DNA of 64,000 nt from Gammaproteobacteria bacterium (GTDB lineage Bacteria; Pseudomonadota; Gammaproteobacteria; Burkholderiales; JAHFRG01): positions 9,343 to 73,342 of the forward strand of contig JBGQCF010000005.1 of the NCBI GenBank assembly GCA_041495205.1, given 5' to 3'. Below are positions 3,401-41,917 of the stretch, one piece after another. Numbering within the stretch: position 1 is the first letter of the stretch; every line of letters starts with the position of its first letter. The notes under the pieces are model-generated. The model was not told the DNA's origin, searched no databases, and was given only the letters and a program-made list of their open reading frames with translations. Made by a program: the position numbers and the translations under genes.

Positions 3401-3618
3401 TAGGGGCCGGCGCAGAAATGCGCCAGGCATTGGGGACGGCGGTATTCAGCGGCATGCTGGGTGTGACGTTTTTTGGAATATTTTTGACTCCCGTGTTCTA
3501 TGTGGTGATCCGCAAGTTTGTCGAGCGGCGCGAGGCGCGGCTGGCGATTGCCGCCGCTACGCAGGCAGGTGGCGCGGCCCGCGATGGAGCGCCCGCCGCC
3601 AAACACGAGCCCGAATAA
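400..3618 (+). CDS. RND (HAE1/AcrB-MexB type) efflux permease
   Basis: The 1072 aa ORF starts MKFAHFFIDRPIFA, has a 12-TM architecture with two large periplasmic loops, and shows typical AcrB-family blocks (VVDDAIVVVENVER, ACKNAILIVEFA). Confidence 0.95.
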   Translation: MKFAHFFIDRPIFAAVLSIIFVLVGTIALFQLPVAQLPNVAPPTIVVNASYPGANAVTVAQTVATPIEQEVNGVENMLYMSSQSTSDGQMNLTVTFNLGTDLNQAQVLVQNRVAIAEPRLPAEVRQNGITTKKRSPDLTMVVHLLSPDNTYDQLYVGNYAYLQLKDVLARVPGVGDVLVFGARDYSMRIWLDPGKVAQRNLTATDVVNAIREQNVQVAAGVINQPPAPNTHELQLTVNTLGRLWTEEQFGDIIIKSGNEGEVTHLRDISRIELAARDYSVNSYLGGKPAAALVIFQLPGTNSLETAKAVRATMQKLKERFPKGLDYRIVYDTTLFVQESIRAVIETLIGAILLVVMVVIVFLQTWRASIIPLLAVPVSLIGTFAAMAAFGFSLNNLSLFGLVLAIGIVVDDAIVVVENVERNIALGLTPREATFKAIDEVAGPVIAVAVVLAAVFVPTAFISGLNGQFYRQFALTIAVSTVISAFNSLTLSPALCALLLQPHGAKKDWFTRFLDRILGWFFHSFNWAFERSRNGYTRVVARVIRMSAIMLVIYAGLLGATWLGFAKVPTGFIPSQDQGYLITYIQLPDAASLARTDAVVQRVAAIARENPGVLNTVEFAGFGVVSFANTSNTASIFLPLKPFAEREHDPNLSGEKIAATLREKLSVIQDAFVGVFLPPPVRGVSTLGGFKMQIQDRGGAGLQALQAAAQKLADAANHQPELQGVFTSFRANTPQLYLDVDRTKAKSMQVPLSDVFSTLQIYLGSLYVNDFNLFGRTYQVRVQADAPFRLSADDIRLLKTRNVKGDMVPLGTLVSVKETTGADRVTRYNLFPAAELNGNTAPGLSSSQAIGIMDNLAKKELPREFGTEWTELIFQQILAGNSAIVIFPLSVVFVFLALAALYESWSLPLAIILIVPMCLLFAITGVWLRGFDNNIFTQIGFVVLVGLACKNAILIVEFAKQHQDRGMNRFDAAIEACKLRLRPILMTSFAFIFGVLPLVFSVGAGAEMRQALGTAVFSGMLGVTFFGIFLTPVFYVVIRKFVERREARLAIAAATQAGGAARDGAPAAKHEPE

Positions 3619-5094: not shown

Positions 5095-5306
5095 GTCGTT
5101 TAGTAATCCGCACAAGAAGTTTGGTCTTGTTTCGCTTATCCCGCACTTTTGAAAATTCAAACCGGCTGTTCCTCCGACAAATGAGCTGGCGGGTTGATTT
5201 ACCGGCTTTAGCACCAATTTAAAAGAAACTTGAGTTGAAGCGGCGAAGTAAGCATGTCTGGGGAAATCGGATCAGAAATGTAATTTACAGAAACGTTGCA
5301 GCGCCT

Positions 5307-6608: not shown

Positions 6609-6813
6609 GGGTTTGCTCCATTACTGCGACCAAGGGTCATGGTCATGGAAGTGTGCCGCTCGTGGTTGGGGGTGGGACGGCAGTCTGTTGGGTAAATTAC
6701 ATGGTTTTGGTTTTTGAGTCAACGCGGGAAGGTTCGACACAGAGCGATAAAATGAGGTCGAAGACAAATTAATTTTGTTTTGAACTGATATTATAACGGG
6801 CATTTGGCAATCT

Positions 6814-7344
6814 TTGTTTCACATTCCCAGAGAGTCTGTGCCTTTTGCCTATTACAAACGGTTAAACAGAGCGCAACAGCGGATTTACCGCCGCAGCGAC
6901 GGGATTCGTTCAATTCAGTTGCCGGAAACACGTTTTGATTCCTTGCTTGAGGCGCTTGAAAACAACCTCAAGTGCGATCAAACCAAGGAAGTGGAAACCG
7001 TTTGCCAGCGTATCCTCGACCGGTTGAATGCAGCGCTAAACGTCTCTGCGGCGCGGGTTAAGGTTTACGCAACGCGGCCCCACGGGCGATGGGGCGAACT
7101 CCAAGGTCTTTACACTCCGGCTGATGACCGCGATTTGGCGCAAATCGAGGTCTGGATGCGCACCGCACAGCGCCGGCAGGTCGTGGCTTTCCGAACCTTC
7201 TTGAGAACATTGTTGCACGAGCTTTGCCATCATCTGGATTACGAATTGCTGAAGCTGCCGGAGAGTTTTCACACCGAGGGCTTTTACCAACGTGAGTCGA
7301 GCCTGTTAAATCAACTCGCTCCACAGAAGCAAACAGTTGTCTAA
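6814..7344 (+). CDS. Hypothetical protein with an HExxH zinc-metalloprotease-type motif (SprT-like?)
   Basis: The 176 aa ORF contains the motif LLHELCHHLD. The TTG start is uncertain. Confidence 0.45.
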   Translation: MFHIPRESVPFAYYKRLNRAQQRIYRRSDGIRSIQLPETRFDSLLEALENNLKCDQTKEVETVCQRILDRLNAALNVSAARVKVYATRPHGRWGELQGLYTPADDRDLAQIEVWMRTAQRRQVVAFRTFLRTLLHELCHHLDYELLKLPESFHTEGFYQRESSLLNQLAPQKQTVV

Positions 7345-7390
7345 AATATTACTTTTACTACGGGTTCTCTCCCTTGGGTAAATAGATAGA

Positions 7391-7870
7391 TTGGCCGAGT
7401 TGGAAAAAATAAGGGTTCTTTTTATCTGCACGGGCAATATCTGCCGCTCGCCCACCGCGGAAGCGGTGTTCCGTCGGCGCATTCAGCAAGCGGGTCTAGA
7501 ACATGCCTTCAGCGCGGATTCGGCGGGTACCCACGATTTCAATCTCGGCAGTGCTCCTGACGTGCGGGCACAGGCAGCGGCGGAGCACAGGGGTTATGGC
7601 ATGGAAGGAATGCATGCGCGCCAGGTGACGATGGATGATTTCGAAACTTTTAATTTCATACTGGTGATGGATAAAAGCAATCTGGCGATATTGAAAAAGG
7701 CGTGCCCGCCGGAATCCCTGCACAAGCTCACGTTGGTCACGCAATTCAGCAGCAATTACCCGGGCTGGGAAATTCCCGACCCCTATTCGGGCGACAGCCT
7801 TGCTTTCGAGCGGGTACTGGACATGCTGGAGGATGCAGTGGAAGGTCTGGTCAAGCGCCTGAGCCGGTAG
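7391..7870 (+). CDS. Low-molecular-weight protein-tyrosine phosphatase
   Basis: The protein carries the P-loop CTGNICRS (C-X5-R-S) near the N-terminus and a DPY motif (IPDPYSG). Its 159 aa length is typical of the family. Confidence 0.85.
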   Translation: MAELEKIRVLFICTGNICRSPTAEAVFRRRIQQAGLEHAFSADSAGTHDFNLGSAPDVRAQAAAEHRGYGMEGMHARQVTMDDFETFNFILVMDKSNLAILKKACPPESLHKLTLVTQFSSNYPGWEIPDPYSGDSLAFERVLDMLEDAVEGLVKRLSR

Positions 7871-11281: not shown

Positions 11282-12244
11282 ATGCGTGATTTAAGCAAAG
11301 CATCTGTTTCCTGGAGGAGCATCGGCGAGGACAGCGAAAACCAACGCATAGACAATTACTTGGCGAAGGTTTTAAAAGGAGTTCCTAAAAGCCACATTTA
11401 CCGCATACTGCGCGGCGGCGAAGTGCGGGTAAACAGCAAGCGCGTCGGGCCGACTTACCGCTTGCAGGTCGGCGATAAACTGCGCATTCCTCCTGTGCGT
11501 ACCGCCAAACGAACACCACAAGATACCGCACCGCGCTCCAACCTGCTGCTGGAGGTATTATTTGAAGATGATAGCCTGCTCGCCATCAACAAACCTAGTG
11601 GCATTGCGGTGCACGGAGGAAGCGGGGTCAGCAGCGGAATTGTCGAGCTTTTACGCATGCGCGAGCCTAAACCGAGATTTCTGGAGTTGGTGCATCGCTT
11701 GGACCGCGATACTTCTGGCATCCTGCTGCTCGCAAAAAAACGCAGCGCACTCACCACGCTCCATCAAATGCTCCGCGCGGGAGAAGTTGAAAAGCGCTAC
11801 CTGGTACTGGTCAAGGGTAGGTGGCTCAATCAAAAGCAGAGTGTCAGGCTTCCCTTGCATAAATATGTGACGGCATCCGGCGAGCGGCGCGTTGCCGTGA
11901 AAACAGGCGGGCAGGCCGCGCATACGCTGTTTTTTCTGCGCCAAAACTGGCAGGAGTTCAGCTTGCTTGAAGCGGAACTTAAAACCGGACGTACCCATCA
12001 GATCCGCGCGCATCTTGCGCATCTGGGCTTCCCCATTCTTGGTGACCCTAAGTATGGCGATTATGCATTGAATCGCGAACTGGCGAAGCGGGGCCTCAAG
12101 CGCATGTTCCTGCATGCCTGCAAGCTGGTGGTCAAACATCCCGCAAGTGGAGCAGTTTTGCAGCTGGAAGCGCCTCTCCCTGAAGACTTGCAGCGGTTTA
12201 TCGACAATCTGGAGGAGCACCGTGCTGAGCCAAGCAAAGGCTGA
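11282..12244 (+). CDS. rluC: 23S rRNA pseudouridine synthase RluC
   Basis: The protein has an S4 domain (RIDNYLAKVLKGVPKSHIYRILRGGEVRVN) and a RluA-family catalytic block (HRLDRDTSG). It lies divergent from rne, as in E. coli. Confidence 0.9.
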   Translation: MRDLSKASVSWRSIGEDSENQRIDNYLAKVLKGVPKSHIYRILRGGEVRVNSKRVGPTYRLQVGDKLRIPPVRTAKRTPQDTAPRSNLLLEVLFEDDSLLAINKPSGIAVHGGSGVSSGIVELLRMREPKPRFLELVHRLDRDTSGILLLAKKRSALTTLHQMLRAGEVEKRYLVLVKGRWLNQKQSVRLPLHKYVTASGERRVAVKTGGQAAHTLFFLRQNWQEFSLLEAELKTGRTHQIRAHLAHLGFPILGDPKYGDYALNRELAKRGLKRMFLHACKLVVKHPASGAVLQLEAPLPEDLQRFIDNLEEHRAEPSKG

Positions 12245-12911
12245 AACGGCCTTGAAGCCAAAGCGTTTTGAACTTTTGGTATTCGATTGGGACGGCACAT
12301 TAACGGATTCGGCGGACCTTATCGTGGCCTCGATGCAGGTCGCGTGTATCGATTTTGGTTTGCCGGTTCCCGATGCCAGGCAAGTGCGGCATATTATCGG
12401 CCTGGGATTCAGGGAAGCGCTGGCGCATTTACTTCCGGAGCTTCCCGTGAGTGATTACCCGCGATTGGCGGAGCGTTACCGCTATCATTTTCTTTCCAGG
12501 GATGCACCAATACCGGTTTTCCCGGGAGCCATTGAAACCATCCAAAAATTACACTCAGCGGGTTTTCTGCTTGCGGTGGCGACCGGCAAAAGCCGCAAAG
12601 GGCTGAGCCGGGATTTTCATGAGACCGGGCTGGGGCAGTATTTTCACGCTTCGCGCTGTGCCGATGAGTGTTTCTCCAAACCACATCCCGCCATGCTGCT
12701 CGAGCTGATTGAGGAATTGCAAGTTGCAGCGGACAAAACGCTGATGATCGGCGACACCACTCACGATTTGCAGATGGCGCGAAGTGCCGGAGTGGCTTCG
12801 CTCGCCGTCGGTTATGGCGCCCATTCCAAGGAAAGCCTGCTTGCGCTTTCCCCTCTTGCCTGCGTAATCGATACCCGGGAGTTGCAGCAATGGCTGAAAA
12901 CACACGCGTGA
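12222..12911 (+). CDS. HAD-superfamily phosphatase (phosphoglycolate phosphatase-like)
   Basis: HAD motif I is present (FDWDGTLTDS), along with motif IV (GDTTHD). I chose the GTG start at 12222, which overlaps the end of rluC, rather than the long upstream ORF extension. Confidence 0.8.
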   Translation: MLSQAKAETALKPKRFELLVFDWDGTLTDSADLIVASMQVACIDFGLPVPDARQVRHIIGLGFREALAHLLPELPVSDYPRLAERYRYHFLSRDAPIPVFPGAIETIQKLHSAGFLLAVATGKSRKGLSRDFHETGLGQYFHASRCADECFSKPHPAMLLELIEELQVAADKTLMIGDTTHDLQMARSAGVASLAVGYGAHSKESLLALSPLACVIDTRELQQWLKTHA

Positions 12912-26867: not shown

Positions 26868-27689
26868 TTATCCGACAAGAACCACTGGACAGTCGATCTC
26901 GTTGAGCAAAGTGGCGAAGCCCTCGCCTTCGCGGAAGCGCCTATCGCCGTTGAGGACCAACACACCGGCGCCCTCTCGCCGCACCGCCGTAGCAAGATCC
27001 TCTACCCCTGCGTAAGTGATGCACTGGCAAGCGGCCGAGGTGATTCCTGCGTGCGCCAGCAGAACCTTTGCCTCGCTTGCGCGCGAGGAGAACTCATCTG
27101 CAGTAGATGCAAGTACCAGCAATCTCAATTCCAGGCTGCCCGATAGCGCCAGTCGTTGCGCCAATTCCAATGCCCGGTGTGAACTAGCCGAACCATCGTA
27201 TACCGCCACGACCGGGCGAGATTCCCGAGTGGGCCGGGTTAGACCCGGCAACGTTTCAACCAGCAAATACCCCAGCGACCGCATTCCCATTCGCGCGCGA
27301 TTGCCCAGTACGACAAGATCGAGTTCACCGGCCAAGGCGAACAACTCGTCGGCAATCTGGCCGCGTGCGATGTGAAACGACCAACGCAGCTGCAACCGGG
27401 CGGCCGTCTCGGCGAGCAGGTGCTGTGCTTCTTCCGCCTCACGGCGCAAGGCCTGCTCCACATCCTCCAATGCGATGGTGCGCGAATCAGGAGACAAAAA
27501 CCCGAGTTCGCGCGTGAAAGGCAGGCTGCCAACCCGCAACAAATTGATGTCCTCGACGAATAGTCCCGCCAATTCGGCATCCAGTTCGGCAGCCAAGGCG
27601 GCGGCTGTCGCCAGCGCCGTCCTGCTGCGCGGCGAAACATCCAGTGCGAGCAGCACCTTGCCGATTCTAGGGTTGTCCTGCATCGCCAT
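26868..27689 (-). CDS. Tandem universal stress protein (USP) domain protein
   Basis: The 273 aa ORF has two USP-like halves (VLLALDVSPRS... and VVAVYDGSASSHRAL...). Its start overlaps the stop of the Lon-like gene by 23 nt. Confidence 0.65.
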   Translation of the reverse strand: MAMQDNPRIGKVLLALDVSPRSRTALATAAALAAELDAELAGLFVEDINLLRVGSLPFTRELGFLSPDSRTIALEDVEQALRREAEEAQHLLAETAARLQLRWSFHIARGQIADELFALAGELDLVVLGNRARMGMRSLGYLLVETLPGLTRPTRESRPVVAVYDGSASSHRALELAQRLALSGSLELRLLVLASTADEFSSRASEAKVLLAHAGITSAACQCITYAGVEDLATAVRREGAGVLVLNGDRRFREGEGFATLLNEIDCPVVLVG

Positions 27690-30114
27690 CCTCGTGTGCG
27701 TGTGCGCCTTTGCTTAAACCGGTGTCCTCCCTGCCATAGGCGCGCCGGAGTTCGGCCAATTGCTTTAAGCGGTCCGCCACTCTGCGGTTGACGCTACCTT
27801 CTGGAAAATGTCCCTGGAGATCAGCCTCGCCCGCAGTCAAGCCGGTCAGCATTTCTATGGCCTGGTCCACGGTTTCCACCGGGTAGATGTGAAAGCGCCC
27901 GGCTGCAGCTGCATCCACTACGTCCCGTCGCAACATCAGGTGTGGCACGTTAGTGGCCGGGATGAGTACGCCCTGATCACCGCTCAGGCCACGTTTGCTG
28001 CAAATGTCGAAAAATCCCTCGATTTTCTCGTTCACCGCACCGATTGCCTGCACTCGTCCGAACTGATCTACCGAGCCGGTCACCGCCAGCGACTGTCGTA
28101 TCGGCTGGCCGGACAGTGAGGATAACAGTGCGCACAATTCCGCCACCGAAGCGCTATCACCTTCCACCGGACCGTAGGTCTGCTCGAACACAAGACTGGC
28201 TGACAGCGACAGCGGCAGCTCAGCGGCATAGCGCGAGGCGAGGAAGGAGGTGAGAATCAGCACGCCCTTGGAATGGATTGCACCGCCCAGCTTGACCTCA
28301 CGTTGGATATCGATCAACTCACCGCTACCCAGGCGGGTGGCAGCCGTGATGCGGGACGGCTGTGCAAAGGCAAATTGGCCAAGCTGGTATACCGAGAGAC
28401 CATTGACCTGTCCCACCTGGTCGCCTGACGTGTCTATCAACAGCGTGCCGCGTAAGATGGCTTCGTACGAACGATCGCGCAACCGGTCAGCACGGTGAAT
28501 CTGCGCTTCGATCGCCCGTTCGACATTCTCGCGCGCCACCGCTTTCTGGCCACCCTGCCCCGCCCAGTAGAAAGCCTCACGCACAAGGTCGGCCAGGCTT
28601 TCCATGTGGGTCGAGAGCTTCTCAGTATCCTCGGCACGGCGGGCGCAGTGCTCGATCACGCGCGCCACGGCTCCGCGATCGAACGGCAGCAGCCCTTCCT
28701 TGCGAGCCACCGTGGCGATCAACCGAGCATACAGAAGGTCGTTTTCCTCGCTGCGCGGTACCTCATCCTCGAAGTCAGCCGCGACCTTGAACAATTCCAC
28801 GAACTCCGGATCGTATTCGGCTAACAGGTAATACAACAATCGATCGCCCAGCAGGACTACCTTGACGTCCAGCGGAATCGGTTCCGGCTCCAGCGAAACG
28901 GTGCTGACCAGGCTGTACATTTGGCCAAGCGACTCGATGCGGATCTCGCGCGTGGACAAGGCACGCTTCAGCGCTTCCCAGGAAAACGGCTGCGTAATCA
29001 GCTTGAACGAATCCAGCAGCAAATAGCCACCGTTGGCCAAGTGCAGCGCACCGGGCTTTATCAACAGGAAATTAGTTACCAACGCACCCATTTGAGAAAG
29101 GTGCTCCACTCGTCCAATCAGGTTCTGGTAGGTCGGATGCTCCTCGTCGATAATCGGTACGCCACGCTGGTCGCCATGATCTACCAGCAAGTTGACCTGG
29201 AAGCGGCTGAGATCGGCACGCTCCGACAGTCCCATCAAAGCCGCGCCTAAAGATTCCTCCTTGGGCTGGCGGAAATCGTTCATGTTCTCGATGATGTTTT
29301 GCTGTACCTCGTCCAAATATGTCCGTACTGCCTGGAAATCGGCGTACTCGCTTCGTAGGGCATTGATCAAGTGCCCCACCGCGAACAGGACGGCCTCCTC
29401 CTTGAGCTTGCGCACGCGCTCAAAGCGCTCCCGCCGCCAGCGCGGCGCTTGATGGAGCATTTTTTCCAGCATTTCCTGCAAATTTCCGGTGTCGCGCTCG
29501 ATACGCTCCTTTTCGTCTTGCGGCAATTTGGAGAAGTCTTCCGGACTGATCACCTCGCCATCTTTGGTTGGGGCAAATGAGAAGCCATTAGGAGTGCGTA
29601 GCAGGACAATGCCACGCTTGGCAGCTACGTCGCCGACTTCCTCGAACGCCTTGGTCTGCTGCCCGCCAAATTCTTCGTTGATCTGATTGAGCCGGCGACG
29701 GTACTCCTCGCCCTCGAACACAGTAGGGATAATCGAGCACAAGTCTTCTACCAGTTGCTGCATGTGGGTGCGTAGCTTCGCCCCCATTCCTGCTGGCAGA
29801 TGGATAGCGCGCGGCTTATGGGGTTGGGAAAAATTATTAACGTAGCACCAGTCAAACGGGCGGGCCTCTCCAGCTATGCGCTGCTTGAGCAGTTGTCGCA
29901 TCAGGGTGCGCTTGCCGCTGCCACTCGGTCCCATGACGTAGAGGTTGTAGCCCTCGCGGCGCATGCCGATGCCGAACTGTGCAGCATCTACGGCACGTAC
30001 TTGTCCGATGATCTCGGTAAGGTCCTCGAGTTCCGCGGTAGTTTCGAAAGGGAACTTGGCGGGATCGCAGCGCCGGTAAAGACGTTCTGCCACCAATGGT
30101 TTGAAATTGCTCAT
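27667..30114 (-). CDS. Lon-like protease with an N-terminal AAA+ ATPase module (AAA_32/LonC-like architecture)
   Basis: The 815 aa ORF has a Walker A motif (GPSGSGKRT). The C-terminal Lon protease domain has the Ser motif VEGDSAS and a downstream Lys (AVNEKIEGF). Confidence 0.85.
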   Translation of the reverse strand: MSNFKPLVAERLYRRCDPAKFPFETTAELEDLTEIIGQVRAVDAAQFGIGMRREGYNLYVMGPSGSGKRTLMRQLLKQRIAGEARPFDWCYVNNFSQPHKPRAIHLPAGMGAKLRTHMQQLVEDLCSIIPTVFEGEEYRRRLNQINEEFGGQQTKAFEEVGDVAAKRGIVLLRTPNGFSFAPTKDGEVISPEDFSKLPQDEKERIERDTGNLQEMLEKMLHQAPRWRRERFERVRKLKEEAVLFAVGHLINALRSEYADFQAVRTYLDEVQQNIIENMNDFRQPKEESLGAALMGLSERADLSRFQVNLLVDHGDQRGVPIIDEEHPTYQNLIGRVEHLSQMGALVTNFLLIKPGALHLANGGYLLLDSFKLITQPFSWEALKRALSTREIRIESLGQMYSLVSTVSLEPEPIPLDVKVVLLGDRLLYYLLAEYDPEFVELFKVAADFEDEVPRSEENDLLYARLIATVARKEGLLPFDRGAVARVIEHCARRAEDTEKLSTHMESLADLVREAFYWAGQGGQKAVARENVERAIEAQIHRADRLRDRSYEAILRGTLLIDTSGDQVGQVNGLSVYQLGQFAFAQPSRITAATRLGSGELIDIQREVKLGGAIHSKGVLILTSFLASRYAAELPLSLSASLVFEQTYGPVEGDSASVAELCALLSSLSGQPIRQSLAVTGSVDQFGRVQAIGAVNEKIEGFFDICSKRGLSGDQGVLIPATNVPHLMLRRDVVDAAAAGRFHIYPVETVDQAIEMLTGLTAGEADLQGHFPEGSVNRRVADRLKQLAELRRAYGREDTGLSKGAHAHEDGDAGQP

Positions 30115-30254: not shown

Positions 30255-31289
30255 TCATGCGCTCCGCATTGCGATCAAGATCCCGGTGCCGCAACTCGCC
30301 GTCTCAAAGCGCACCGGCAGAAATTGTTCGATCAACCAAATCGTAGTTTGTGCGTGACTGCTCAGGGAACGTGCCGTAACCCGTGACGCTCCGCCGGCGA
30401 GCGCCAGGTAGATCAGAAGCTGATCGCTGGCATGTATGTCGAGCGCCACTCCGGCGCCTAGATCAGCAGCCAGTTCAGCTCCCGCCTCCTTGCCGAGTTG
30501 TTCGGCGCGCACGCCGCGCTGCGCCACACGCCCGGCACCGAAAACACTGCGCTCAGTTTCAGCCCACAGCACGATTGCTCCACCTTGGCCGTATGCTTGA
30601 TCATTGCCTAGCACTTGCGTCTTGATGGTCGACTCGGTAACGCCAAACCTTCGCAATGGCTCGATTGCGGCGCTGCGCATGCGCTCGACAATATGCCCCG
30701 GCAAATTCACGACATGAGCATTGCCAGACAACGCTTTCAGTTTCCCGGCGCAATCGAGTTGCAGCGCGTGCAGCGTGCCCGGATCGACAACAACCTCAAC
30801 CTCGCCACCGCCGCGCGGATAATATCCACGCCGCTGCAACTCGCCGCGCACCCGGGCCCCCATCCTGCCTAACAAAGCCAGCAACACGTGTTGAAAATAA
30901 TCGAATGGCGGCGCCGCTCGTACGTCAGTGCCACCGATTATGCGAACACGCACGCGCTCGCCGCTGTGGATCATCGCCGGCAACAGCGCCTGCAGCACCA
31001 GCGTAACACTGCCCGCAGTGCCGACGTCAAATTGAAAATCTCCGCCGCGCAGACGGCGCGGGCGAAACGCCAGCCGTTGCGCTTTCAGCGCGAGTCCGTC
31101 GACCTCGGCATCGCACAGCGCGGCAACTGCGTTTACCGCGGTCAGATGCTGCGCGGCAAGCCCCGGATTCGCACGCTTGGCGCGAACGTTCGTAATGGTG
31201 ACCGTGGTGCCAGTAATAGCAGCGAGCGCGACCGCCGTGCGTACCAGTTGTCCGCCGCCTTCGCCGTAGCAGCCGTCGATTTCGAGCAT
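30255..31289 (-). CDS. rtcA: RNA 3'-terminal phosphate cyclase
   Basis: The 344 aa ORF has the N-terminal block GEGGGQLVRTAVALAA and the adenylylatable His context (DIHASDQLLIYLALAGG). Confidence 0.9.
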   Translation of the reverse strand: MLEIDGCYGEGGGQLVRTAVALAAITGTTVTITNVRAKRANPGLAAQHLTAVNAVAALCDAEVDGLALKAQRLAFRPRRLRGGDFQFDVGTAGSVTLVLQALLPAMIHSGERVRVRIIGGTDVRAAPPFDYFQHVLLALLGRMGARVRGELQRRGYYPRGGGEVEVVVDPGTLHALQLDCAGKLKALSGNAHVVNLPGHIVERMRSAAIEPLRRFGVTESTIKTQVLGNDQAYGQGGAIVLWAETERSVFGAGRVAQRGVRAEQLGKEAGAELAADLGAGVALDIHASDQLLIYLALAGGASRVTARSLSSHAQTTIWLIEQFLPVRFETASCGTGILIAMRSA

Positions 31290-32583: not shown

Positions 32584-32865
32584 TCAGTGGTCTTCCAGCC
32601 TGGGAATGCTTTCCTCGGCGGGCTCTCCGGTCTCGGGATCGATCCAGTCTGCAATCCCAGCGTCCGCCTCGGCTTCCTCGAGAGTCTCACCTGGTTCGAC
32701 TTCGGAATTGTCCCGATACTGCATGTCCTGGATCGCTTCGATCAGACCCGGAAATGGACCTGATTCATCACCACCGCTCTTGGACTGCCAGTAGAACCCA
32801 TCAGGGCGCTCGATAATGCGCGTCTTGTCGTAATCTGGGGGCGTTTCAGGAATGATATGGGTCAT
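32584..32865 (-). CDS. Hypothetical small acidic protein
   Basis: The 93 aa ORF has a strongly acidic C-terminal half. Its ATG overlaps the stop of the upstream small ORF (ATGA). Confidence 0.5.
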   Translation of the reverse strand: MTHIIPETPPDYDKTRIIERPDGFYWQSKSGGDESGPFPGLIEAIQDMQYRDNSEVEPGETLEEAEADAGIADWIDPETGEPAEESIPRLEDH

Positions 32866-33092
32866 GTTACAGCTCCTTGCTGCGCTGGATAAATGACATC
32901 ACCGAAATCTATAGGCATAGGCGACCGTGGTCGCCTGCGGGAACTCGCCGCCCCAATGGTGGCAAAGCTCATGATGTTGTGCCGCTTAAGCTGTTCCAGG
33001 GTAGACGCCTTGCGTGCGTGGTTCATTTCTTGCCTCCTTGCCACTGCCTGCAGCAGCGGTACATGGATGGATTCGGCTTTGCCTTTTTTCAT
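32862..33092 (-). CDS. Hypothetical small basic protein
   Basis: The 76 aa Arg/Lys-rich ORF has a 4-nt ATGA overlap with the downstream acidic ORF, which suggests translational coupling. Confidence 0.35.
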   Translation of the reverse strand: MKKGKAESIHVPLLQAVARRQEMNHARKASTLEQLKRHNIMSFATIGAASSRRRPRSPMPIDFGDVIYPAQQGAVT

Positions 33093-33456
33093 TATCTACT
33101 TGCAGGACGATGGACATTTTGATCCATATCAATCGCGCGCCCCCGGCTATAACCGGCAGTCGCGAAGCGAGCCGGACGACTTGACCGGTCTATCTCAGTC
33201 CAAATTCAAACAGAATGTTGCGTGGAAACGGACCGGGGCTTCGCGTTGCAGATGCTGGTAAATTAGACACCGGAGCCTCAATTAGCGTCTTATTTAGGTA
33301 CTTACCGCGCGACACCCAGAACGAGCAATACTATGCCCAAGGTAATCAGCCACTTGCTCACACCGCGTTCTTTTCGACAATGGTAATGGTGTTTAAATAT
33401 TATCGCGCTTAACTTCAAGACGTCCCAACGCAAATCGCAATGGCATCGAGCCAAAC

Positions 33457-34023
33457 CTAAACCCGATGCCTACTTTCACCCTGCGTAACACCTCCGGCGA
33501 TTATATGCGCAGTGCGCAACGGTTCCGGAATCAAACTATGGACCGCGAAACGCCGCAGCAGGTTTTCGGTTTCCGCAAGGGAACTGCCACGGCGCTGGAC
33601 GTAAACCCCGGCTACGTGTTCCATTGGTCCGGCGCGCTCGATAAGCTGCCATTTGCGCTTTCCTCCCGGCACATGGCTTAGCAGCGCGCGGCGGATCGCC
33701 TCCAGGTTCGGCCTGCGGCGGGTTACCAGAATTACTGGAATGCCCAGCGCCGCGTGAAGCGCGTCCAGGTCGACTACATTGAATCCTGCGAGCGCAATCC
33801 CCTGCAGCAGCACAGCGTGAGTCTGGGACCGGAAACGCGAGTGTCGCACCAAATCAGTCAATACCTTGGTGGAATTTACTCCGTCGCGCCGAACCTTGCC
33901 GGAGAGCACGGCGTCCAGCCGCAGTCCCGCATACACTGCCCCTACTACCAGCACATTCCCGCGGTAATTCTGATCAAAGGGGGCATCATCAAAACCGATA
34001 ATGTGTGTAAGGCGCCTCGACAT
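33457..34023 (-). CDS. DUF99 / UPF0215-like protein (mostly archaeal family with a nuclease-like fold)
   Basis: The 188 aa ORF has the N-terminal block IIGFDDAPF and the blocks LQGIALAGFNVVD and EPLRTAHIIA. I assigned the family from memory. Confidence 0.6.
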   Translation of the reverse strand: MSRRLTHIIGFDDAPFDQNYRGNVLVVGAVYAGLRLDAVLSGKVRRDGVNSTKVLTDLVRHSRFRSQTHAVLLQGIALAGFNVVDLDALHAALGIPVILVTRRRPNLEAIRRALLSHVPGGKRKWQLIERAGPMEHVAGVYVQRRGSSLAETENLLRRFAVHSLIPEPLRTAHIIAGGVTQGESRHRV

Positions 34024-34266
34024 GTGATAGAGCAGCGTAACTGGCTTGTTTGTACCAAGTTAATCGTTAATCTCAACTTAACGAAAAGGAATAGGTCACG
34101 TCAAGAAAAGGATTAGGCCGCCACTAGATTGCAGTCCAGCATAAACATTCCCTCTGGCTTATTTTGCACGTCTCATGGAGTGAAGGAGAGATTAACAAGC
34201 AGTTTTCAGCCCTGGAAGTGCATTAAACTATAAATCAACAATGTGCTGAACAAATCACGTCTAAAA

Positions 34267-34995
34267 ATGCGCGGGATAATTTACGTTGGTACAAGCGGCT
34301 GGACTTACGACGCGTGGAAGGACGGCTTTTATGCCGGCATCCCGCGCAGCGCATGGCTGAAATACTATACCCAACACTTTCATGCAGTCGAAGTGAACGC
34401 CACCTTCTATCACCAACTCAGACAGAGCACCTTCGCTAAGTGGGCGGAAACAACCCCTCCCGATTTCCGGTTCGCGATCAAGGGCCACCGCTACTTGACA
34501 CATGTCTTGAAGCTGGAAGTTTCTCGAGAAGTTTTTTTGCGGCAAATGCAAGCCGTTAAGCCCTTGGGCAAACAGCTCGCTGTGATGCTTTGGCAGCTAC
34601 CCGCCGGACTGAAGTGCGATCCACTACGCTTGGAGCGATTCGCGCGTATGCTTGATACTTGGCAGGAGACCCGTCATGCTTTGGAATTCAGGCACCAATC
34701 GTGGTTCGACGAGCCTACTGCGGAGTGCCTGCGGCGTCACCGTCTCGCTGCCTGCCAATCGGACGCAGCGGATTGGCCTTTGTGGGACGCCGTGACGACT
34801 GATCTGGTCTACGTGAGGCTGCACGGGCACCGCATCACATATGAATCCAGCTATGCTGCTCGGCAACTCGCCGATTGGGCAAAACGCATCCGGCGTTGGT
34901 CGATGGAAGGGCGCGACGTGCACATTTACTTTGATAATACCGATGCCGGGCACGCTCCGCGCGATGCGCAGCGTCTGGTCGCATCGCTGGCTTGA
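34267..34995 (+). CDS. DUF72 (YecE/UPF0759) family protein
   Basis: The protein carries the blocks IYVGTSGWTYDAWKDGFY, VEVNATFY and YFDN. The start is set at the ATG rather than the upstream GTG. Confidence 0.85.
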   Translation: MRGIIYVGTSGWTYDAWKDGFYAGIPRSAWLKYYTQHFHAVEVNATFYHQLRQSTFAKWAETTPPDFRFAIKGHRYLTHVLKLEVSREVFLRQMQAVKPLGKQLAVMLWQLPAGLKCDPLRLERFARMLDTWQETRHALEFRHQSWFDEPTAECLRRHRLAACQSDAADWPLWDAVTTDLVYVRLHGHRITYESSYAARQLADWAKRIRRWSMEGRDVHIYFDNTDAGHAPRDAQRLVASLA

Positions 34996-35019
34996 TTGCG
35001 CCGGAGCGGCATGCTCGCG

Positions 35020-36120
35020 TTAATTCCAGCGCAATAGAAAAGTATCATCCGCTTGTCGCTCTACCCGTGTACCGAGCTTCATGCCTTCGCGGTTCAGGCA
35101 CTCGAATAACCAAAGCATGCCCTCCTCGGGTGCGCGGTTAACGCGGAAGCGGCGAATCTGGGTCGGAGTGGCAGTGAATTGCAGCAGCCTGCCGGTGGAA
35201 GCATCCACAACCGGGAAGTACATCAGCGAGAGATCGGCCCTGTAGCTCTCGTGCCCGCCGATACCTTCGTAGTCATTTAGGAAATCACCGCAGCCGTAAA
35301 TGATTGGCCTTTCCCGGTAGACTTCGATACCCTTTACGTGGTGCGAGGAATGGCCGTGTACCACATCTATTCCAGCGGTGTCGATGAGGCGATGCGCAAA
35401 TGCGCGCTCTTCGTACGACACATCAAAAATCCAATTGCCGCCCCAGTGGATGGAAAACACGGCTATGTCTCCTGCCTTCTTTTCGCTAAATATCCGTCGC
35501 GCGATTATGCCCACAGTATGCTCGGAAAAATCCTTCAGGAAATTAACGCCGGAACGCTCTTTCGTTGCCGCCCATTCGCCAGCTACACCACTGCTCTCCA
35601 TTGCAAAGGCGAATACAAGCACCCTTCCCTTGTTAGCCACCTCGATACGCGCCGGCGCCGCCGCTTCCTCTTGGTTGCGCCCCGCTCCGGCAGTACGCAG
35701 GCCTGCTCGGTGCAGTGTATCTAGAGATTCGGTCAGTCCACTACGCCCCCAGTCCAGCATGTGATTGTTGGCCAATACACAGCAATCGGGTTTTGCGGCG
35801 GTGAGGCAAGGTATATTCGCGGGACTCATGCGGTAATGGATACCCTTTCCTGGCCAGGCGTCTTTGCTTGACGTAACAGAGGTCTCCAAATTGATTATGC
35901 GCACATCCGGCCGAACGCGTTCGAACTCCATCAAGGCATCGCCCCAAATGTAAGCAAAATCGACAGGCTTCTTGAAAGTTCCGCTAGCGCGCTCGGCCAA
36001 CTCCACGTAGTCAGTCGCCGAGCGCACGTATGGCTCGAAAAGATGCGGCTGGCTTGGGTGCGGCAGTATCTGGTCCACACCCCGACCAGTCATAACGTCG
36101 CCACACAGAAATAACATCAT
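35020..36120 (-). CDS. CapA/PGA_cap-family metallophosphoesterase (orphan; no capB or capC nearby)
   Basis: The protein carries the blocks LCGDVMTGRG, LANNHMLDWG, FSIHWGGNW and VHGHSSHH. The start is set at the ATG (MMLFLCGD). Confidence 0.8.
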   Translation of the reverse strand: MMLFLCGDVMTGRGVDQILPHPSQPHLFEPYVRSATDYVELAERASGTFKKPVDFAYIWGDALMEFERVRPDVRIINLETSVTSSKDAWPGKGIHYRMSPANIPCLTAAKPDCCVLANNHMLDWGRSGLTESLDTLHRAGLRTAGAGRNQEEAAAPARIEVANKGRVLVFAFAMESSGVAGEWAATKERSGVNFLKDFSEHTVGIIARRIFSEKKAGDIAVFSIHWGGNWIFDVSYEERAFAHRLIDTAGIDVVHGHSSHHVKGIEVYRERPIIYGCGDFLNDYEGIGGHESYRADLSLMYFPVVDASTGRLLQFTATPTQIRRFRVNRAPEEGMLWLFECLNREGMKLGTRVERQADDTFLLRWN

Positions 36121-36264
36121 GGGAACGGGCGAAATTACTCCGCACTGGCCGCTCGGTGCCACGCCGGGTTGACTTCCGCACTGGAGTTTGATGCTGTATT
36201 CGCAGGTTCTTCCACTGCTTCAGCATCCAGGGCATTCTTCTGAGTGTTTGCGGGCACATTCATG

Positions 36265-37149
36265 TTACGTGGTCGTTCCCTGAGCGTAAAATCCGTGGCA
36301 TTCCTGCTCACGCCCGCGAACCACCCTCTTGCCAACCAGCGGCCCACGCGTCTCTGTAACAACGGTGCATTGGCGTTCCACGTGGTCGGTATCATAGAAA
36401 TAAAGGACAACCCAATCGCGAAGTCTTCCAAGTTTGTGTGCCAAAGCCGTGTTCGAGTAGAGTGCTGTAAAGTGCCACTCTCCGCGCTCGGTATGAAGTA
36501 CCGGCAACCAAGCTTCATTCTTGGGGTTGAATCGCTTCGGTGTGATTTTAGGCAAATGCCCTGATGCGGCTTTATCACGGTATTCACGGTCTATGTCCAG
36601 CAGCGTTTCAACCGGGGGCTCATGAGCCTTCTCGTTTACGAGACGCGGCCGTCGCGTTCTCACGCGGCCAAGCATTTTATCCAGAATAGCACGCCATGCA
36701 GCTGCGCGCCTTGAGCCTATGCCGGGAACGCTTTCGAGCCTTCCGTCATGGGCGGCTGATTCCAGCTCTTCGAGGGTATCGATATGCAAGGTATCGTGAA
36801 TTCGCTTGGCTAGCTCCGGCCCCATGCCTGGGACTGACTGAAACAGGGCCGCAGGGTCGGTGGTTCCACGCAGGCGTTCCAATTGGCCCCACCGTTCTGT
36901 AACCAGAATTTCTGCTATCGCAGAGGCAATGCCTTTACCAATGCCGGGAAGCGCATCGAGACCTTCAACTCCCTCCGCTCCAAATATGTCGCGCACGCTT
37001 CGGGGAAGATGCGCGATCGTATCGGCTGCCTTGCGATAAGCGTTCACACGGAACGGATTGGCGCCCTGACTGCGAAGGAGATCCGCTGCCTCGCGTAGTT
37101 TGTCGGCGATCTGTTGATTCTCCGACCACGATGTTTCGGCTTGGGTCAT
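36265..37149 (-). CDS. Helix-hairpin-helix DNA-binding protein resembling the N-terminal (8 kDa/fingers) part of family X polymerases, without a polymerase palm
   Basis: The 294 aa ORF has three HhH-type GIG motifs (LPGIGKGIA, VPGMGPELA, VPGIGSRRA). No GSxRRG...DxD nucleotidyltransferase motif is present. I do not recognise the ~130 aa C-terminal domain. Confidence 0.65.
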   Translation of the reverse strand: MTQAETSWSENQQIADKLREAADLLRSQGANPFRVNAYRKAADTIAHLPRSVRDIFGAEGVEGLDALPGIGKGIASAIAEILVTERWGQLERLRGTTDPAALFQSVPGMGPELAKRIHDTLHIDTLEELESAAHDGRLESVPGIGSRRAAAWRAILDKMLGRVRTRRPRLVNEKAHEPPVETLLDIDREYRDKAASGHLPKITPKRFNPKNEAWLPVLHTERGEWHFTALYSNTALAHKLGRLRDWVVLYFYDTDHVERQCTVVTETRGPLVGKRVVRGREQECHGFYAQGTTT

Positions 37150-37939: not shown

Positions 37940-38206
37940 GGGAAGCCTCTGGGGTGATTCTCGATGGAATAGCGGCGATTGTGCGGCGAGTCGTCGTCAG
38001 CGTCGCTAGGCCCGTATTCTGCGCCGAGGTTCGTCGGAGACGCTGCCTGGTAGTCGCGACGGGTACTACGAATGGAAAACAACTGGCCCGCCCGTAAGCC
38101 CCCCTACTTCTTTACCATGACGGATGGACAACCCTTTTTGCTATGGCCGGGATGTGGGATTGCTGTGAACGCGAACGTGACCGGATCGAAACGTTTGCGT
38201 TAATAG
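37940..38206 (+). pseudogene. Decayed SOS-response-associated peptidase (SRAP/YedK-family) gene fragment
   Basis: Three frames together spell SRAP-like blocks: LWGDSRW.., SVARPVFCAEVRRRRCLVVATG, GYYEWK, KPPYFFTMTDGQPF and FAMAGMWDCCERERDRIETFALI. The blocks are interrupted by frameshifts and stops, and the N-terminal Cys2 region is missing. Confidence 0.5.
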
Positions 38207-38225
38207 ATGTTGCTAGTTGCAGATT

Positions 38226-38316
38226 TGGTGCCCGGAGCCGGAGTCGAACCGGCACGGGCTGGTTAGAGCCCGAGGGATTTTAAGTCCCTTGTGTCTACCA
38301 ATTCCACCATCCGGGC
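38226..38316 (-). tRNA. leuZ: tRNA-Leu (anticodon UAA), encoded CCA end
   Basis: The sequence folds as a cloverleaf with a long variable arm and the anticodon loop CTTAAAA. It is close to E. coli leuZ. Confidence 0.9.
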
Positions 38317-38366
38317 ATAAAAGTGATTCTACTAGACCCTAAGAAGCAAGTTCCGGTGAGCTTAAT

Positions 38367-38440
38367 GACACAAGGGACTACGTCCCTTTTCGTCGCAGCT
38401 CAGACTCCTCGCTGCGATCTACCAATTCCACCATCCTGGG
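38367..38440 (-). repeat. tRNA-Leu-derived fragments (5' acceptor/D-arm copy plus an inverted 13-mer)
   Basis: Region 38418-38440 repeats the first ~22 nt of the tRNA-Leu (19 nt identical: TCTACCAATTCCACCATCC on the + strand). Region 38367-38379 (GACACAAGGGACT) is the inverted copy of 38283-38295 inside the tRNA. No T-arm is present, so this is not a functional tRNA. Confidence 0.6.
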
Positions 38441-38459
38441 TATGAAGCTCAAACTTGTT

Positions 38460-38533
38460 TGGAGGCGGGGGTCGGAATTGAACCGGCGTCCACGGCTTTG
38501 CAGGCCGCTGCATGACCACTCTGCCACCCCGCC
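38460..38533 (-). tRNA. cysT: tRNA-Cys (anticodon GCA), encoded CCA end
   Basis: The 74 nt sequence has the acceptor stem GGCGGGG/CCCCGCC and the anticodon loop CTGCAAA. There is one C-A mismatch in the T stem. Confidence 0.85.
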
Positions 38534-38638
38534 ACTTTTACGGACATTAAAAACTAAAAAGGAAAACGAAGTTTTAGTGGAGGCCACCTTTCGGGTTATG
38601 CCGTAGCTAAAACACTTCATCTTCGTTTCATTTGGAAT

Positions 38639-38714
38639 TGGAGCGGGAAACGAGGCTCGAACTCGCGACCTCAACCTTGGCAAGGTTGCGCTCTACCAAC
38701 TGAGCTATTCCCGC
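38639..38714 (-). tRNA. glyW: tRNA-Gly (anticodon GCC), encoded CCA end
   Basis: The 76 nt sequence is nearly identical in pattern to E. coli glyW (GCGGGAATAGCTCAGTTGGTAGAGC...TTGCCAA...). Confidence 0.92.
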
Positions 38715-39366: not shown

Positions 39367-41166
39367 CTAATGCAGCTCGCGATAGATAATTTCGGCCAGT
39401 TTGCGGCTGATGCCCTCCACCATCGCGAGGTCGTCCACACTCGCCACAAGCACGCCCCTTAGTCCGCCAAACCGCGCTAGCAGTTTTTGCCGGCGCTTCG
39501 CGCCCACACCGTCGATTTTTTCCAGTGAAGACGTAACGCGCGCCTTGGCGCGCCTGGCGCGGTGACCCTGAATCGCGAAGCGGTGTGCTTCATCGCGGAT
39601 ATGTTGAATCAGATGCAACCCGACATTGTCGCCTGCCAATTGTAGCGGTTTTTCATCTCCCGGGAAAATCAGTTGTTCCAAACCCGGCTTGCGTTCTTCG
39701 CCTTTTGCCACGCCGATTAAATAAATATCATTCAGGCCTAGCTCCGCCAGAATTTCTTTAGCTGCATTCACTTGCCCTTTGCCGCCATCAACCAGTAACA
39801 GATCTGGTACTTTGCCCTCGCCCGCCGATATTTTACGGTAGCGCCGCGCCAATACTTCGCGCATGGCCGCGACATCATCACCCGGTGTGATGCCTTCGAT
39901 ATTGTAACGGCGGTATTCGCCGCTTTGCATGGAAAGATTATCAAACACCACGCACGAACCTATGGTGGCTTCGCCCATGGTGTGGCTGATGTCGAAACAT
40001 TCGATGCGCTGTACACTCGCGGGCAGTCCCAGAACTTGCAGCAGGGTCTGCAGCCGCGCTTCCTGTGTAGCCTGACTGCTGTATTTTTGCTCGACGGCGA
40101 GAGTCGCGTTTTGCATCGCCATATTGAGCCAAACGCGCCGTTCCCCAACCGGCCTTGAGAAGATTTGCACTTTATGCCCTGCATAGCCGCTTAACGCTGT
40201 TTCCGGCGCGTCTTTGGCTATCGGTTGGTTGACAATAATGGTTTGAGGAGCTTTGCGGCCTAGATAATGCTGCAGCAGGAATGCTTCCAGCGCGGCCGCC
40301 GGCTCATACCCTTCCGCATTCTGCGGGAAAAAGCTTTTGTCCCCCAGATGCCTGCCGCCCCTTACCATTACCACATTGACACACAGCAATCCAGAGCGGG
40401 CAACACAAGCCACGATGTCCGCATCCACCTCGTTATGGCTGCTCACAAACTGTTTTTCCTGGATTGTGCGCAGCGACTGGATTTGATCGCGATAAAGCGC
40501 TGCCATTTCGTATTGCCGCTCATCGGCCGCATCCTGCATTTTCTGCGTGAGTATTTGCAAAACTCGGTTTTGTTTGCCCTGCAAAAACAGCAATGCGTTA
40601 TCCACGTCAGCGCGGTATGTCGCTTCGTCAATCAAGTTCACGCAAGGCGCGGTACAGCGCCTGATTTGATATAGCAGGCATGGGCGGGAGCGGTTAGCAA
40701 ATGCGCTGTCTTCGCAGGTGCGGATGCGGAAGACTTTCTGCAGCAGCTGAATGCTCTCCCTTACCGCCCAGGCATTCGGGTAAGGGCCGAAGTATCGATT
40801 TTTCTTGTCCAGCGCTCCACGGTGAAACCCGAGGCGTGGGAAGCGGTGCTTGCTTAATACGATATACGGATATGATTTATCATCTCTGAACAATATGTTA
40901 TATCTTGGAGTTAAACTTTTTATTAAGTTGTTTTCGAGGAGCAGCGCCTCAGCCTCAGAACGGGTTACCGTGGTCTCGATCTCCGTGACTTGCGATACCA
41001 TCAACTGGGTGCGCGGAGCAAGCGAGGTTTTCTGAAAGTACGATGAAACACGCTTTTTAAGGTCACGCGCTTTGCCGGCATAAATCACCTCCCCTGCCGC
41101 GTTCAGCATGCGGTACACCCCGGGCAAATGAGGCAGTCCGGAAATCATTTCCTTGGCGTTAAACAT
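39367..41166 (-). CDS. uvrC: Excinuclease ABC subunit C
   Basis: The 599 aa ORF has an N-terminal GIY-YIG domain ([18 protein letters not shown]), a UvrBC domain and a C-terminal HhH. Confidence 0.95.
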
Positions 41167-41248
41167 GCTCTTTAAAACCTAGGCTCAGCTTCATTCATCC
41201 AGCGGCTTCTCGGCTATTGCCCAATTTACGCAGCGAAGCTGCTTAAAA

Positions 41249-41917
41249 TCAGGTTTCCTTTTGCATTAAGAGTTGATGGCTGATGCGGGCAAAGACTGCT
41301 TCGAACATTTGCTGGGTCAGGCGTCTGGTCTGGGTATTATAACGGCTGCAGTGATAGCTATCGTATAAGGTGAGGCCATTTGGCAGAGCATGCACTGAGT
41401 CGTGAGCAAACAGGAAATCCTTTATCTTGAGGCCCAAGGCTTTCAGCACGGCGCGATGCGCAATCGTTCCTAAAGCAAGCACCGCGGAACCTTTATCCAT
41501 GACTTTAATTTCGCGAGCCAAATATTTGTTGCAAATTAACATTTCATCATTATTTGGCTTGTTGTTTGGAGGCAGGCATTTGACTGCGTTAGTGACGCGA
41601 CAGGCAATAAGCTGCAAACCGTCATGGCTGTCGGTCGAATAGGGCTGATTGGCAAAATCGAAACGGTGCAACGTCTGGTAGAGCAATATTCCGGCGTAAT
41701 CGCCGGTAAACGGGCGGCCGGTGCGGTTTGCCCCATGCATTCCCGGCGCTAATCCGACAATCAGCAGTTTTGCGTGCGCGTCGCCAAACGCCGGGACGGG
41801 CATTGCGTAATAATCCGGGTAATCGCGCTTGACTTGATCGAGATAGCGTGCAAGCCGTGGGCAATCCCTGCATTCCAGACAGAAACCGGCATCGGTTGGT
41901 TTTCTTTTCATCTTCAC
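41249..41917 (-). CDS. Uracil-DNA glycosylase superfamily protein (family 5/UDGb-like, Fe-S type)
   Basis: The protein has the motif VGLAPGMHGANRTGRPFTGD and an N-terminal Cys cluster (CLECRDCPRL). Confidence 0.8.
   Translation of the reverse strand: MKMKRKPTDAGFCLECRDCPRLARYLDQVKRDYPDYYAMPVPAFGDAHAKLLIVGLAPGMHGANRTGRPFTGDYAGILLYQTLHRFDFANQPYSTDSHDGLQLIACRVTNAVKCLPPNNKPNNDEMLICNKYLAREIKVMDKGSAVLALGTIAHRAVLKALGLKIKDFLFAHDSVHALPNGLTLYDSYHCSRYNTQTRRLTQQMFEAVFARISHQLLMQKET

Follow-up and report, generated by a model that had tools for sequence, protein, structure and literature searches.

Endo_dU, DUF72, CapA-like and polymerase-less PolX-type genes in a variable islet of a Burkholderiales genome: possible members of a loose pool of stress-island genes

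We analysed four adjacent genes in a 64,000-nucleotide stretch of DNA (the window; contig JBGQCF010000005.1, positions 9,343 to 73,342), which encode an Endo_dU (DUF99) protein, a DUF72 protein, a soluble CapA-like metallophosphoesterase of the PGA_cap family, and a helix-hairpin-helix (HhH) protein that resembles the front end of family X DNA polymerases (PolX). A preliminary description of the window had suggested that this quartet might form a DNA or RNA end- or lesion-processing toolkit. Table 1 lists the features of the islet. Contigs identical to the window come from an uncultured Burkholderiales-like metagenome-assembled genome (GCA_041476645.1), for which gene calls and Pfam assignments were also consulted. 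All four open reading frames (ORFs) stand in the window's ORF list where the preliminary description had placed them, and the domain assignments made there held: each passes curated hidden Markov model thresholds in Pfam, with which NCBIfam is in accord, and survives structure checks.

The quartet is part of an islet with the gene order Usp, Lon-like protease, RtcA, RNase Z-like MBL, orf93-orf76, Endo_dU, DUF72, CapA-like and HhH, bounded by a tRNA-Leu gene and an SRAP remnant on one side and by tatD on the other. GC content is unremarkable, and neither the ORF list nor the gene table of the identical contig contains an integrase or transposase at the locus. The HhH and PGA_cap genes are co-directional, with PGA_cap downstream across a gap of 102-144 nt; DUF72 is convergent with PGA_cap (spacer of 24 nt) and divergent from Endo_dU (about 220 nt). 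Because gene orientation changes, the quartet spans at least three transcription units (HhH to PGA_cap; DUF72; Endo_dU) and is not one operon. A promoter and terminator scan of the locus gave no signal above chance level.

Table 1. Features of the islet and its borders, in window coordinates
Feature	Coordinates	Strand	Evidence or remark
Tandem universal stress protein (Usp), 273 aa	26868..27689	-	Pfam Usp, two stretches; edge of variable islet
LonB/LonC-like AAA+ protease	27667..30114	-	Pfam LonC_helical, AAA_32, LonB_AAA-LID, Lon_C
RtcA, RNA 3'-phosphate cyclase	30255..31289	-	TIGR03399, 400 bits vs 250; Pfam RTC, RTC_insert
RNase Z-like metallo-beta-lactamase (MBL)-fold protein, 339 aa	31541..32560	+	NCBIfam NF002558, 466 bits vs 315
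orf76-orf93 pair	32584..33092	-	no Pfam match
Perfect FNR/Anr-type palindrome TTGATCCATATCAA	33119..33132		27-40 nt upstream of orf76 start codon
Endo_dU (DUF99/UPF0215), 188 aa	33457..34023	-	Pfam PF01949, E 4.6e-58
DUF72 (YecE-like TIM barrel), 250 aa	34243..34995	+	Pfam PF01904, E 1.1e-69
Soluble CapA/PGA_cap-type metallophosphoesterase, 380 aa	35020..36162	-	Pfam PF09587, E 1.7e-80
HhH protein, 294 aa	36265..37149	-	Pfam PF14716 HHH_8, E 2e-23; PF14520 HHH_5, E 8.8e-14
SRAP pseudogene fragment	37999..38217	+	stitched peptide vs PF02586, E 9.5e-18

The Endo_dU protein scores 196 bits against a PF01949 cut-off of 32.7, with residues 6-179 covering profile positions 3-181 of 182. It stays under the NCBIfam equivalog cut-offs (NF001977, 175 versus 235; NF052283, 49 versus 200) and, judged by these scores, is a superfamily member outside these two equivalog groups, which were built on archaeal proteins. 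The family had been presented as poorly characterised and mainly archaeal. The first statement is outdated: since 2024 DUF99 has been Endo_dU, a deoxyuridine (dU) endonuclease with an EndoV-like RNase H fold, which nicks 3' of dU and whose bacterial homologues form a separate clade (Li et al., J Biol Chem 2024, PMC11585767). The second does not fit the size of the family, which has 5396 cluster representatives at E<=1e-3 and 368 stretches in species-representative genomes, including a large bacterial clade. The window protein aligns end to end with the Archaeoglobus enzyme, AfuEndo_dU (PDB 2qh9, E 7.9e-29); D10 and H166 of the latter correspond to D12 and H173 (the PDB chain is offset by 3 residues), and 15 bacterial homologues all have D12, D13 and H173. 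Replacing both D10 and H166 by alanine (D10A/H166A) inactivates the Archaeoglobus enzyme (PMC11585767). As far as the alignment tells, the window protein thus keeps both residues whose joint mutation abolishes the dU-cleaving activity predicted for it.

Although it shares the Pfam family and these residues with the Archaeoglobus enzyme, the window copy belongs to the bacterial clade, and its kin differ in context: Endo_dU is reported in operons with uracil-DNA glycosylase (UDG) in haloarchaea (PMC11585767), whereas bacterial loci bring it together with stress-island genes, endonuclease V or PEBP. Among 80 species-level Endo_dU loci (77 of them outside the window's clade) there was no dominant neighbour, PEBP being found in 8 and endonuclease V in 6, both Pfam-confirmed. 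Antisense ORFs in GC-rich DNA made the de novo clustering of ORFs near Endo_dU noisy, and only Pfam-confirmed clusters were kept. The endonuclease V gene, nfi, adjoins Endo_dU in L089 (11055-11816; PF04493, E 1.5e-72) and in five other loci, and two EndoV-like deamination endonucleases are thus sometimes found side by side. The window also carries uvrC and a family-4-like UDG gene (PF03167, E 2e-25) at 39367-41917, 5-8 kb from Endo_dU. The Endo_dU and UDG genes are not adjacent there, and this UDG was matched within 10 kb of Endo_dU in only one of the 80 loci (L058), other UDG families not having been screened systematically; the UDG-superfamily gene of L066 (below) is a different one, identified by reading the ORFs of that locus.

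The DUF72 protein is a full-length member of the family of TM1631 and E. coli YecE (1VPQ, 1VPY, 1ZTV). It scores 235 bits against a PF01904 cut-off of 25.3 and matches the TIM barrel of TM1631 (PDB 1vpq) over residues 11-240 with an E value of 5.7e-23; gene callers put its start at 34267, which gives 242 amino acids. DUF72 has been proposed, on computational grounds only, as an EndoIV/UVDE-like DNA-lesion endonuclease, and is enriched together with SRAP near polB2 (PMC3828134, PMC11791011).

The CapA-like protein scores 270.6 bits against a PGA_cap cut-off of 27 and would be 366 amino acids long if started at the Met codon at 36120. The metallophosphoesterase-type GD, NNH and GH/HH blocks are invariant across an alignment of its subfamily. 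There is no membrane anchor at the N-terminus, and because this runs straight into the LFLCGD strand of motif I, we take the protein to be soluble. It shares the PGA_cap metallophosphoesterase-like fold family with CapA/PgsA and with MslH, a lasso-peptide epimerase; MslH (8gq9) is its nearest solved relative, though only weakly so, through two short stretches (residues 106-159 and 202-285). The existence of MslH also corrects the earlier statement that CapA-like proteins have no settled role outside poly-gamma-glutamate synthesis, since it represents a second known activity. That the gene has no partner was seen correctly: neither capB/pgsB nor capC/pgsC is called within about 10 kb, nor do they appear among the recurrent neighbours of 83 loci sampled for the PGA_cap subfamily (47 of the 83 being flanked by 3 kb or more on one side). 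Unlike CapA/PgsA, the window protein has neither capB/capC partners nor an N-terminal anchor, and its relatives are instead accompanied by PolX or by RNA-end enzymes.

In the HhH protein, PolX-type 8-kDa and fingers domains (residues ~10-157) are fused to a C-terminal domain (~176-294). The N-terminal part is homologous to that of bacterial PolX (Thermus 3AU2, Deinococcus 2W9M): the family profile matches Thermus PolX residues 2-149 (PDB 3au2) with an E value of 1.7e-22. Unlike PolX, the protein has no palm, thumb or PHP domain in Pfam searches, and its last 120 residues form a different domain; residues ~160-294 have no Pfam match at all. In Pol beta, Lys72 is the dRP-lyase nucleophile, while K35 and Y39 form part of the 5'-phosphate pocket. 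Aligned to Pol beta, the HhH protein has Ala and Gly in place of Lys72 and Lys68, and the equivalents of K35 and Y39 are invariant in the family as R34 and Y38.

The AlphaFold2 models are confident, with a predicted local distance difference test score of 84 for the whole HhH protein and 90.7 for the C-terminal domain alone (176-294), which has the topology alpha-beta-beta-alpha-beta-beta-beta-alpha. As had been noted, this domain is unrecognised: Foldseek found nothing significant in PDB (best E 0.3) or BFVD (best E 0.1), and PUR-alpha and p32 reach only E ~1 in the PDB search. A likeness to the 'YFTGS...HN' region, seen by eye, had led us to suspect that the domain derives from the palm and thumb of PolX. 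We rejected this candidate, as hhalign of the family against full PolX aligns the N-terminus alone (to residue 153, E 3e-19) and the model has no PolX match. The domain is extremely conserved, rich in invariant His, Asp and Glu, and was found in about 1045 representatives (50% identity), nearly always in the same architecture of about 300 amino acids; there are thousands of full-length homologues with 63-83% identity. The HhH homologue of B. cenocepacia CMCC(B)23006 (NZ_CP091013.1; L178:12001-12854) matches in two pieces in different frames with a break at ~12243-12249, which points to a frameshift in a pseudogene or to an error in sequencing.

We then compared the arrangement of the quartet with that in other genomes. 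The order HhH-PGA_cap-DUF72-Endo_dU(-RtcA-Lon-Usp) is limited to the small Burkholderiales clade of the window (L010/L011, L016, L017), with identities to the window of 83% for HhH, 80-84% for Endo_dU and 76-84% over the kept order in the three related genomes. The closest relative by Endo_dU (L015; 96% protein identity) keeps Endo_dU alone of the four. There, uvrC-pgsA-tRNAs-DUF4124 are directly followed by Endo_dU and then by the tatD-proximal spacer, with HhH, PGA_cap and DUF72 missing on one side and everything from orf76 through Usp (including RtcA, MBL and Lon) on the other. L015 shows in this way that gene content varies in the interval from DUF4124 to tatD. The Usp-side edge of the islet was set by the same comparison. 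The Endo_dU segment of L015 (3966-4670, against window 33417-34122) has 94% DNA identity, while the uvrC-pgsA-tRNA and DUF4124 flanks have 80-82%. This suggests that the segment was recently exchanged between lineages, or that L015 is possibly a chimeric short contig. The quartet is likewise absent from the remaining 76 species-level Endo_dU loci, and hence from 77 of the 80. Neither DUF72 nor Endo_dU occurs in any of the 83 PGA_cap loci, and HhH homologues outside the clade are found without any of the three quartet partners.

Single members of the quartet do, however, recur beside a limited set of other genes. HhH homologues outside the clade stand beside HSP20, Cpn60, HPF and USP genes, in rows such as PRT-DLH-HSP20-Cpn60-HhH; Cpn60, PRT, HSP20, PRPP synthase, HhH and two Usp genes; and HSP20-CBS-Cpn60-orf93-HhH-PhaC, with HPF and Usp further along. 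A Burkholderia plasmid carries Crp/Fnr-PAS-HPF-HhH-PRPP synthase-CBS-BON, and one HhH locus outside the clade shows no island-type neighbours. PGA_cap has PolX (6 loci) or HhH (1 locus) next to it in 7 of the 83 loci. DLH and PRT were each present in 8 of the 83, and HPF, CBS and nitroreductase in 5-6 each. In L097 the row reads DksA-PolX (full length)-PGA_cap-MBL-MJ1316-RtcA-PRT-DLH-PRPP synthase; here, as in L163, full-length PolX sits beside the CapA-like gene where the window has HhH. Another PGA_cap locus combines HSP20, FBPase, PGA_cap, hemerythrin, nitroreductase, MBL, MJ1316, RtcA and CBS, and a third context consists of PRPP synthase, DksA, DUF155, Usp and HPF. The run PGA_cap-MBL-MJ1316-RtcA was found in both L095 and L097, and a homologue of the Lon-like protease adjoins PGA_cap and PolX in L169.

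Endo_dU shows similar company in a minority of genomes. Island-type genes (at least 55% identity) lie within 10 kb of it in 7 of the 77 species outside the clade. It is directly flanked by them in L021 (PRPP synthase/Endo_dU/PRT/PolX) and L063 (PRPP synthase/Endo_dU/Cpn60/HSP20), and is adjacent to RtcA-MBL in L053 and to MBL in L078. A gammaproteobacterial metagenome-assembled genome, L066, has PolX, DUF72, DLH, PRT, a UDG-superfamily gene and Endo_dU within 9 kb: at 1708-7487 stand full-length PolX, DUF72, DLH, PRT, an isochorismatase-like gene (assigned by reading only) and the UDG-superfamily gene (PF03167), with Endo_dU 2.5 kb on. This is the sole independent case found with DUF72, a PolX-type protein and Endo_dU in one neighbourhood.

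Several of these loci contain FNR/Anr boxes. The palindrome in the window, TTGATCCATATCAA, is the only perfect match to TTGATN4ATCAA in the 64 kb, where 0.13 would be expected. Perfect boxes are enriched in L012, L014, L095, L097 and L125; several island loci have two or three of them (up to 3 in 13 kb), and one of those in L097 lies between RtcA and PRT. The related loci are reminiscent of the low-oxygen-activated (lxa) locus of B. cenocepacia and of DosR-type dormancy regulons; low-oxygen islands of the lxa type carry USPs, alpha-crystallin, nitroreductase and polyhydroxyalkanoate (PHA) genes (PMC3721108). The features in common are USPs, alpha-crystallin/HSP20, nitroreductase, PHA synthase, CBS, HPF, Crp/Fnr and FNR/Anr boxes. 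All that the window retains, in contrast, is Usp, a single FNR box and the nucleic-acid enzymes. No PolX, HhH, CapA-like, RtcA or Endo_dU genes are named in the lxa paper (PMC3721108). The B. cenocepacia lxa locus was considered as a carrier of quartet-type genes and set aside: such genes go unmentioned in that paper, and the B. cenocepacia HhH homologue described above, which looks frameshifted, has none of the searched island genes nearby.

The most economical reading of these links is that the island gene pool contains PolX or HhH, the CapA-like gene, RtcA with the RNase Z-like MBL and MJ1316, the Lon-like protease and, sometimes, Endo_dU and DUF72. We propose that the quartet consists of genuine, separately transcribed members of this loose pool, which belongs to low-oxygen or dormancy-type stress islands of Burkholderiales and other soil and water bacteria, that it is no dedicated four-part system, and that the window holds a reduced, lineage-specific patchwork. 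We give this proposal only about an even chance of being correct, because the window lacks most island hallmarks. Indeed, its lxa/Anr-island markers come down to a single Usp gene and a single perfect FNR/Anr box; nowhere in the 64 kb is there an HSP20, Cpn60, HPF, CBS, PRT, DLH, PRPP synthase, MJ1316 or PolX gene. Other observations weigh against the proposal too. No FNR/Anr box lies upstream of the quartet genes, even at up to 2 mismatches. About 70 of the 80 Endo_dU loci and most PGA_cap loci have no island marker, and outside the clade an island context for DUF72 was seen once only (L066). The nearest solved relative of the CapA-like protein, the epimerase MslH, is neither a nuclease nor a phosphatase. 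Finally, many neighbourhood contigs are short, and related genomes are non-independent samples.

The toolkit of the preliminary description, in which the four genes would work as one dedicated unit on DNA or RNA ends or lesions, fared worse than its parts. Each of the four domains has a known or plausible relation to nucleic acids, and as candidate nucleic-acid enzymes or binders the proteins stand; three related genomes share the order (76-84% identity), and the distant L066 locus groups PolX, DUF72 and Endo_dU within 8 kb. As a conserved unit, however, the quartet does not exist beyond its own clade: it is missing from 77/80 Endo_dU loci and 83/83 PGA_cap loci, L015 keeps Endo_dU alone, HhH homologues elsewhere do without the three partners, and three orientation changes preclude a single operon. 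A strict four-gene toolkit is thus largely refuted by synteny, and we regard it as improbable. The further idea that it acts with the neighbouring RtcA and MBL genes, whose identities were confirmed (TIGR03399 and NF002558, above cut-offs), has the support of the PGA_cap-MBL-MJ1316-RtcA linkage, which recurs (L095, L097); the Endo_dU of L015 is found without RtcA, MBL or Lon. The main competitor of the stress-island reading is chance juxtaposition, that is, unrelated accessory genes piled up in a recombination-prone islet by a tRNA cluster and sharing neither regulation nor a pathway. It would explain why islet content differs among close relatives, why the islet is bordered by a pseudogene fragment and three tRNA genes, and why the bacterial Endo_dU neighbourhood is so variable (the top neighbour being in 8/80 loci); the lack of any promoter or terminator signal above chance agrees with it, as does the contrast between the Endo_dU segment (94%) and its flanks (~81%) in identity to L015, which suggests independent exchange. 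What speaks for the stress-island reading over chance is the recurrence of the associations: PolX or HhH beside PGA_cap in 7/83 loci, the repeated PGA_cap-MBL-MJ1316-RtcA run, and the unrelated genomes, several in number, in which Endo_dU immediately adjoins island genes. We judge all of these to be well above single-copy chance. We therefore consider chance juxtaposition possible, though distinctly the weaker explanation.

It is also conceivable that two of the proteins do not process nucleic acids, the CapA-like protein acting on a peptide or polymer, as CapA/PgsA and MslH do, and the HhH protein binding DNA in a structural or regulatory role, such as that of a nucleoid protein in dormant cells. 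MslH-type epimerases are indeed the only relatives of the PGA_cap protein that are solved or curated, the HhH protein has lost the lyase lysine and every polymerase motif, and it is usually found next to chaperone and ribosome-hibernation genes. Yet PGA_cap repeatedly adjoins full-length PolX and the RtcA-MJ1316-MBL RNA-end genes, and the 5'-phosphate-pocket residues R34 and Y38 are invariant; we regard this alternative, too, as improbable. Least probable of all, to the point that we give it hardly any weight, is that the islet is anti-phage defence or the cargo of a mobile element. A variable site by tRNA genes, nuclease-like proteins and a Lon-like protease would suit such a role, but 0/10 proteins match any PADLOC model, integrase and transposase are absent and the GC content is ordinary.

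If the stress-island reading is right, the island proteins would act in parallel in non-replicating, oxygen-limited cells and keep their nucleic acids repairable. Endo_dU, and possibly an UVDE/EndoIV-like DUF72, may incise DNA at lesions, as family knowledge suggests; the HhH protein would bind the resulting nicks or gaps and either recruit partners or act through its C-terminal domain; and the soluble CapA-like metallophosphoesterase may trim blocked ends. RtcA and MBL, in other islands together with MJ1316, would handle RNA ends. MJ1316 is cited (second-hand, in PMC6514570) as a reader of RNA 2',3'-cyclic ends. A bolder version, which we think unlikely, is that the HhH family would be a new DNA-damage factor of dormant cells: a PolX-derived reader of nicks, gaps and 5' ends, to which the C-terminal domain would add a new activity, either catalytic or recruiting, with the CapA-like protein as an end-cleaning partner. 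In islands controlled by FNR/Anr, the two would stand in for the polymerase-plus-PHP design of full-length PolX.

Three of the four families were already known, one of them characterised since 2024, and the arrangement of the quartet is clade-specific. New are the recurrent PolX/HhH-CapA-like-RtcA/MBL/MJ1316 association within FNR-box stress islands and, as far as modelling goes, a large HhH family (about 1000 clusters at 50% identity) with a C-terminal domain that has neither a Pfam model nor a structural relative. Should the stress-island reading be correct, bacterial Endo_dU, DUF72, the 'orphan' CapA-like protein and a polymerase-less PolX derivative would share one testable physiological setting, in which DNA and RNA are kept repairable in non-growing cells under oxygen limitation. 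Cultured carriers include Burkholderia sp. JP2-270 and Cupriavidus sp. KK10 for HhH and Methylobacter for Endo_dU. The locus is thus a useful lead for dormancy-associated nucleic-acid repair, but no surprising new system.

Among the neighbouring genes, RtcA is bona fide and recalls the Rtc RNA repair operon (RtcA-RtcB-RtcR); in contrast to that operon, the genes called within 10 kb include neither RtcB nor RtcR, and the partners are the RNase Z-like MBL and, elsewhere, also MJ1316. The mechanical ORF of the MBL gene starts at a TTG at 31328 (410 amino acids). We place the real start at the ATG at 31541, because NF002558 covers residues 72-407 of that ORF and gene calls on the identical contigs agree. 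orf93 (32584-32865, minus strand) encodes a small, very acidic protein, homologues of which (56-69% identity) adjoin HhH (L014), PGA_cap (L107, L110) and MBL (L089); by this distribution it looks like an unrecognised conserved component of the islands. MJ1316 occupies a similar place in L095 and L097, and orf93 was considered as its counterpart and rejected, there being no BLASTP or Pfam similarity.

At the other border of the islet, the decayed gene for SRAP, an abasic-site sensor, that was reported earlier is confirmed by its stitched, frameshifted pieces. The remnant consists of four pieces in three reading frames, frameshifted three times, and its match to the profile is confined to positions 87-154 of 214; both ends of the domain are gone, including the N-terminal catalytic Cys, and there is no intact ORF. 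Because this partial profile coverage is spread over three frames, we regard it as a pseudogene fragment. It is abutted by tRNA-Leu (38226-38316), the first gene of a tRNA-Leu(TAA)/tRNA-Cys/tRNA-Gly cluster (38226-38714) lying directly beside it, and the variable islet starts at the 3' side of this tRNA-Leu, with no integrase present. The region of the SRAP fragment, about 360 nt long in the window, has shrunk to about 88 nt in L015.

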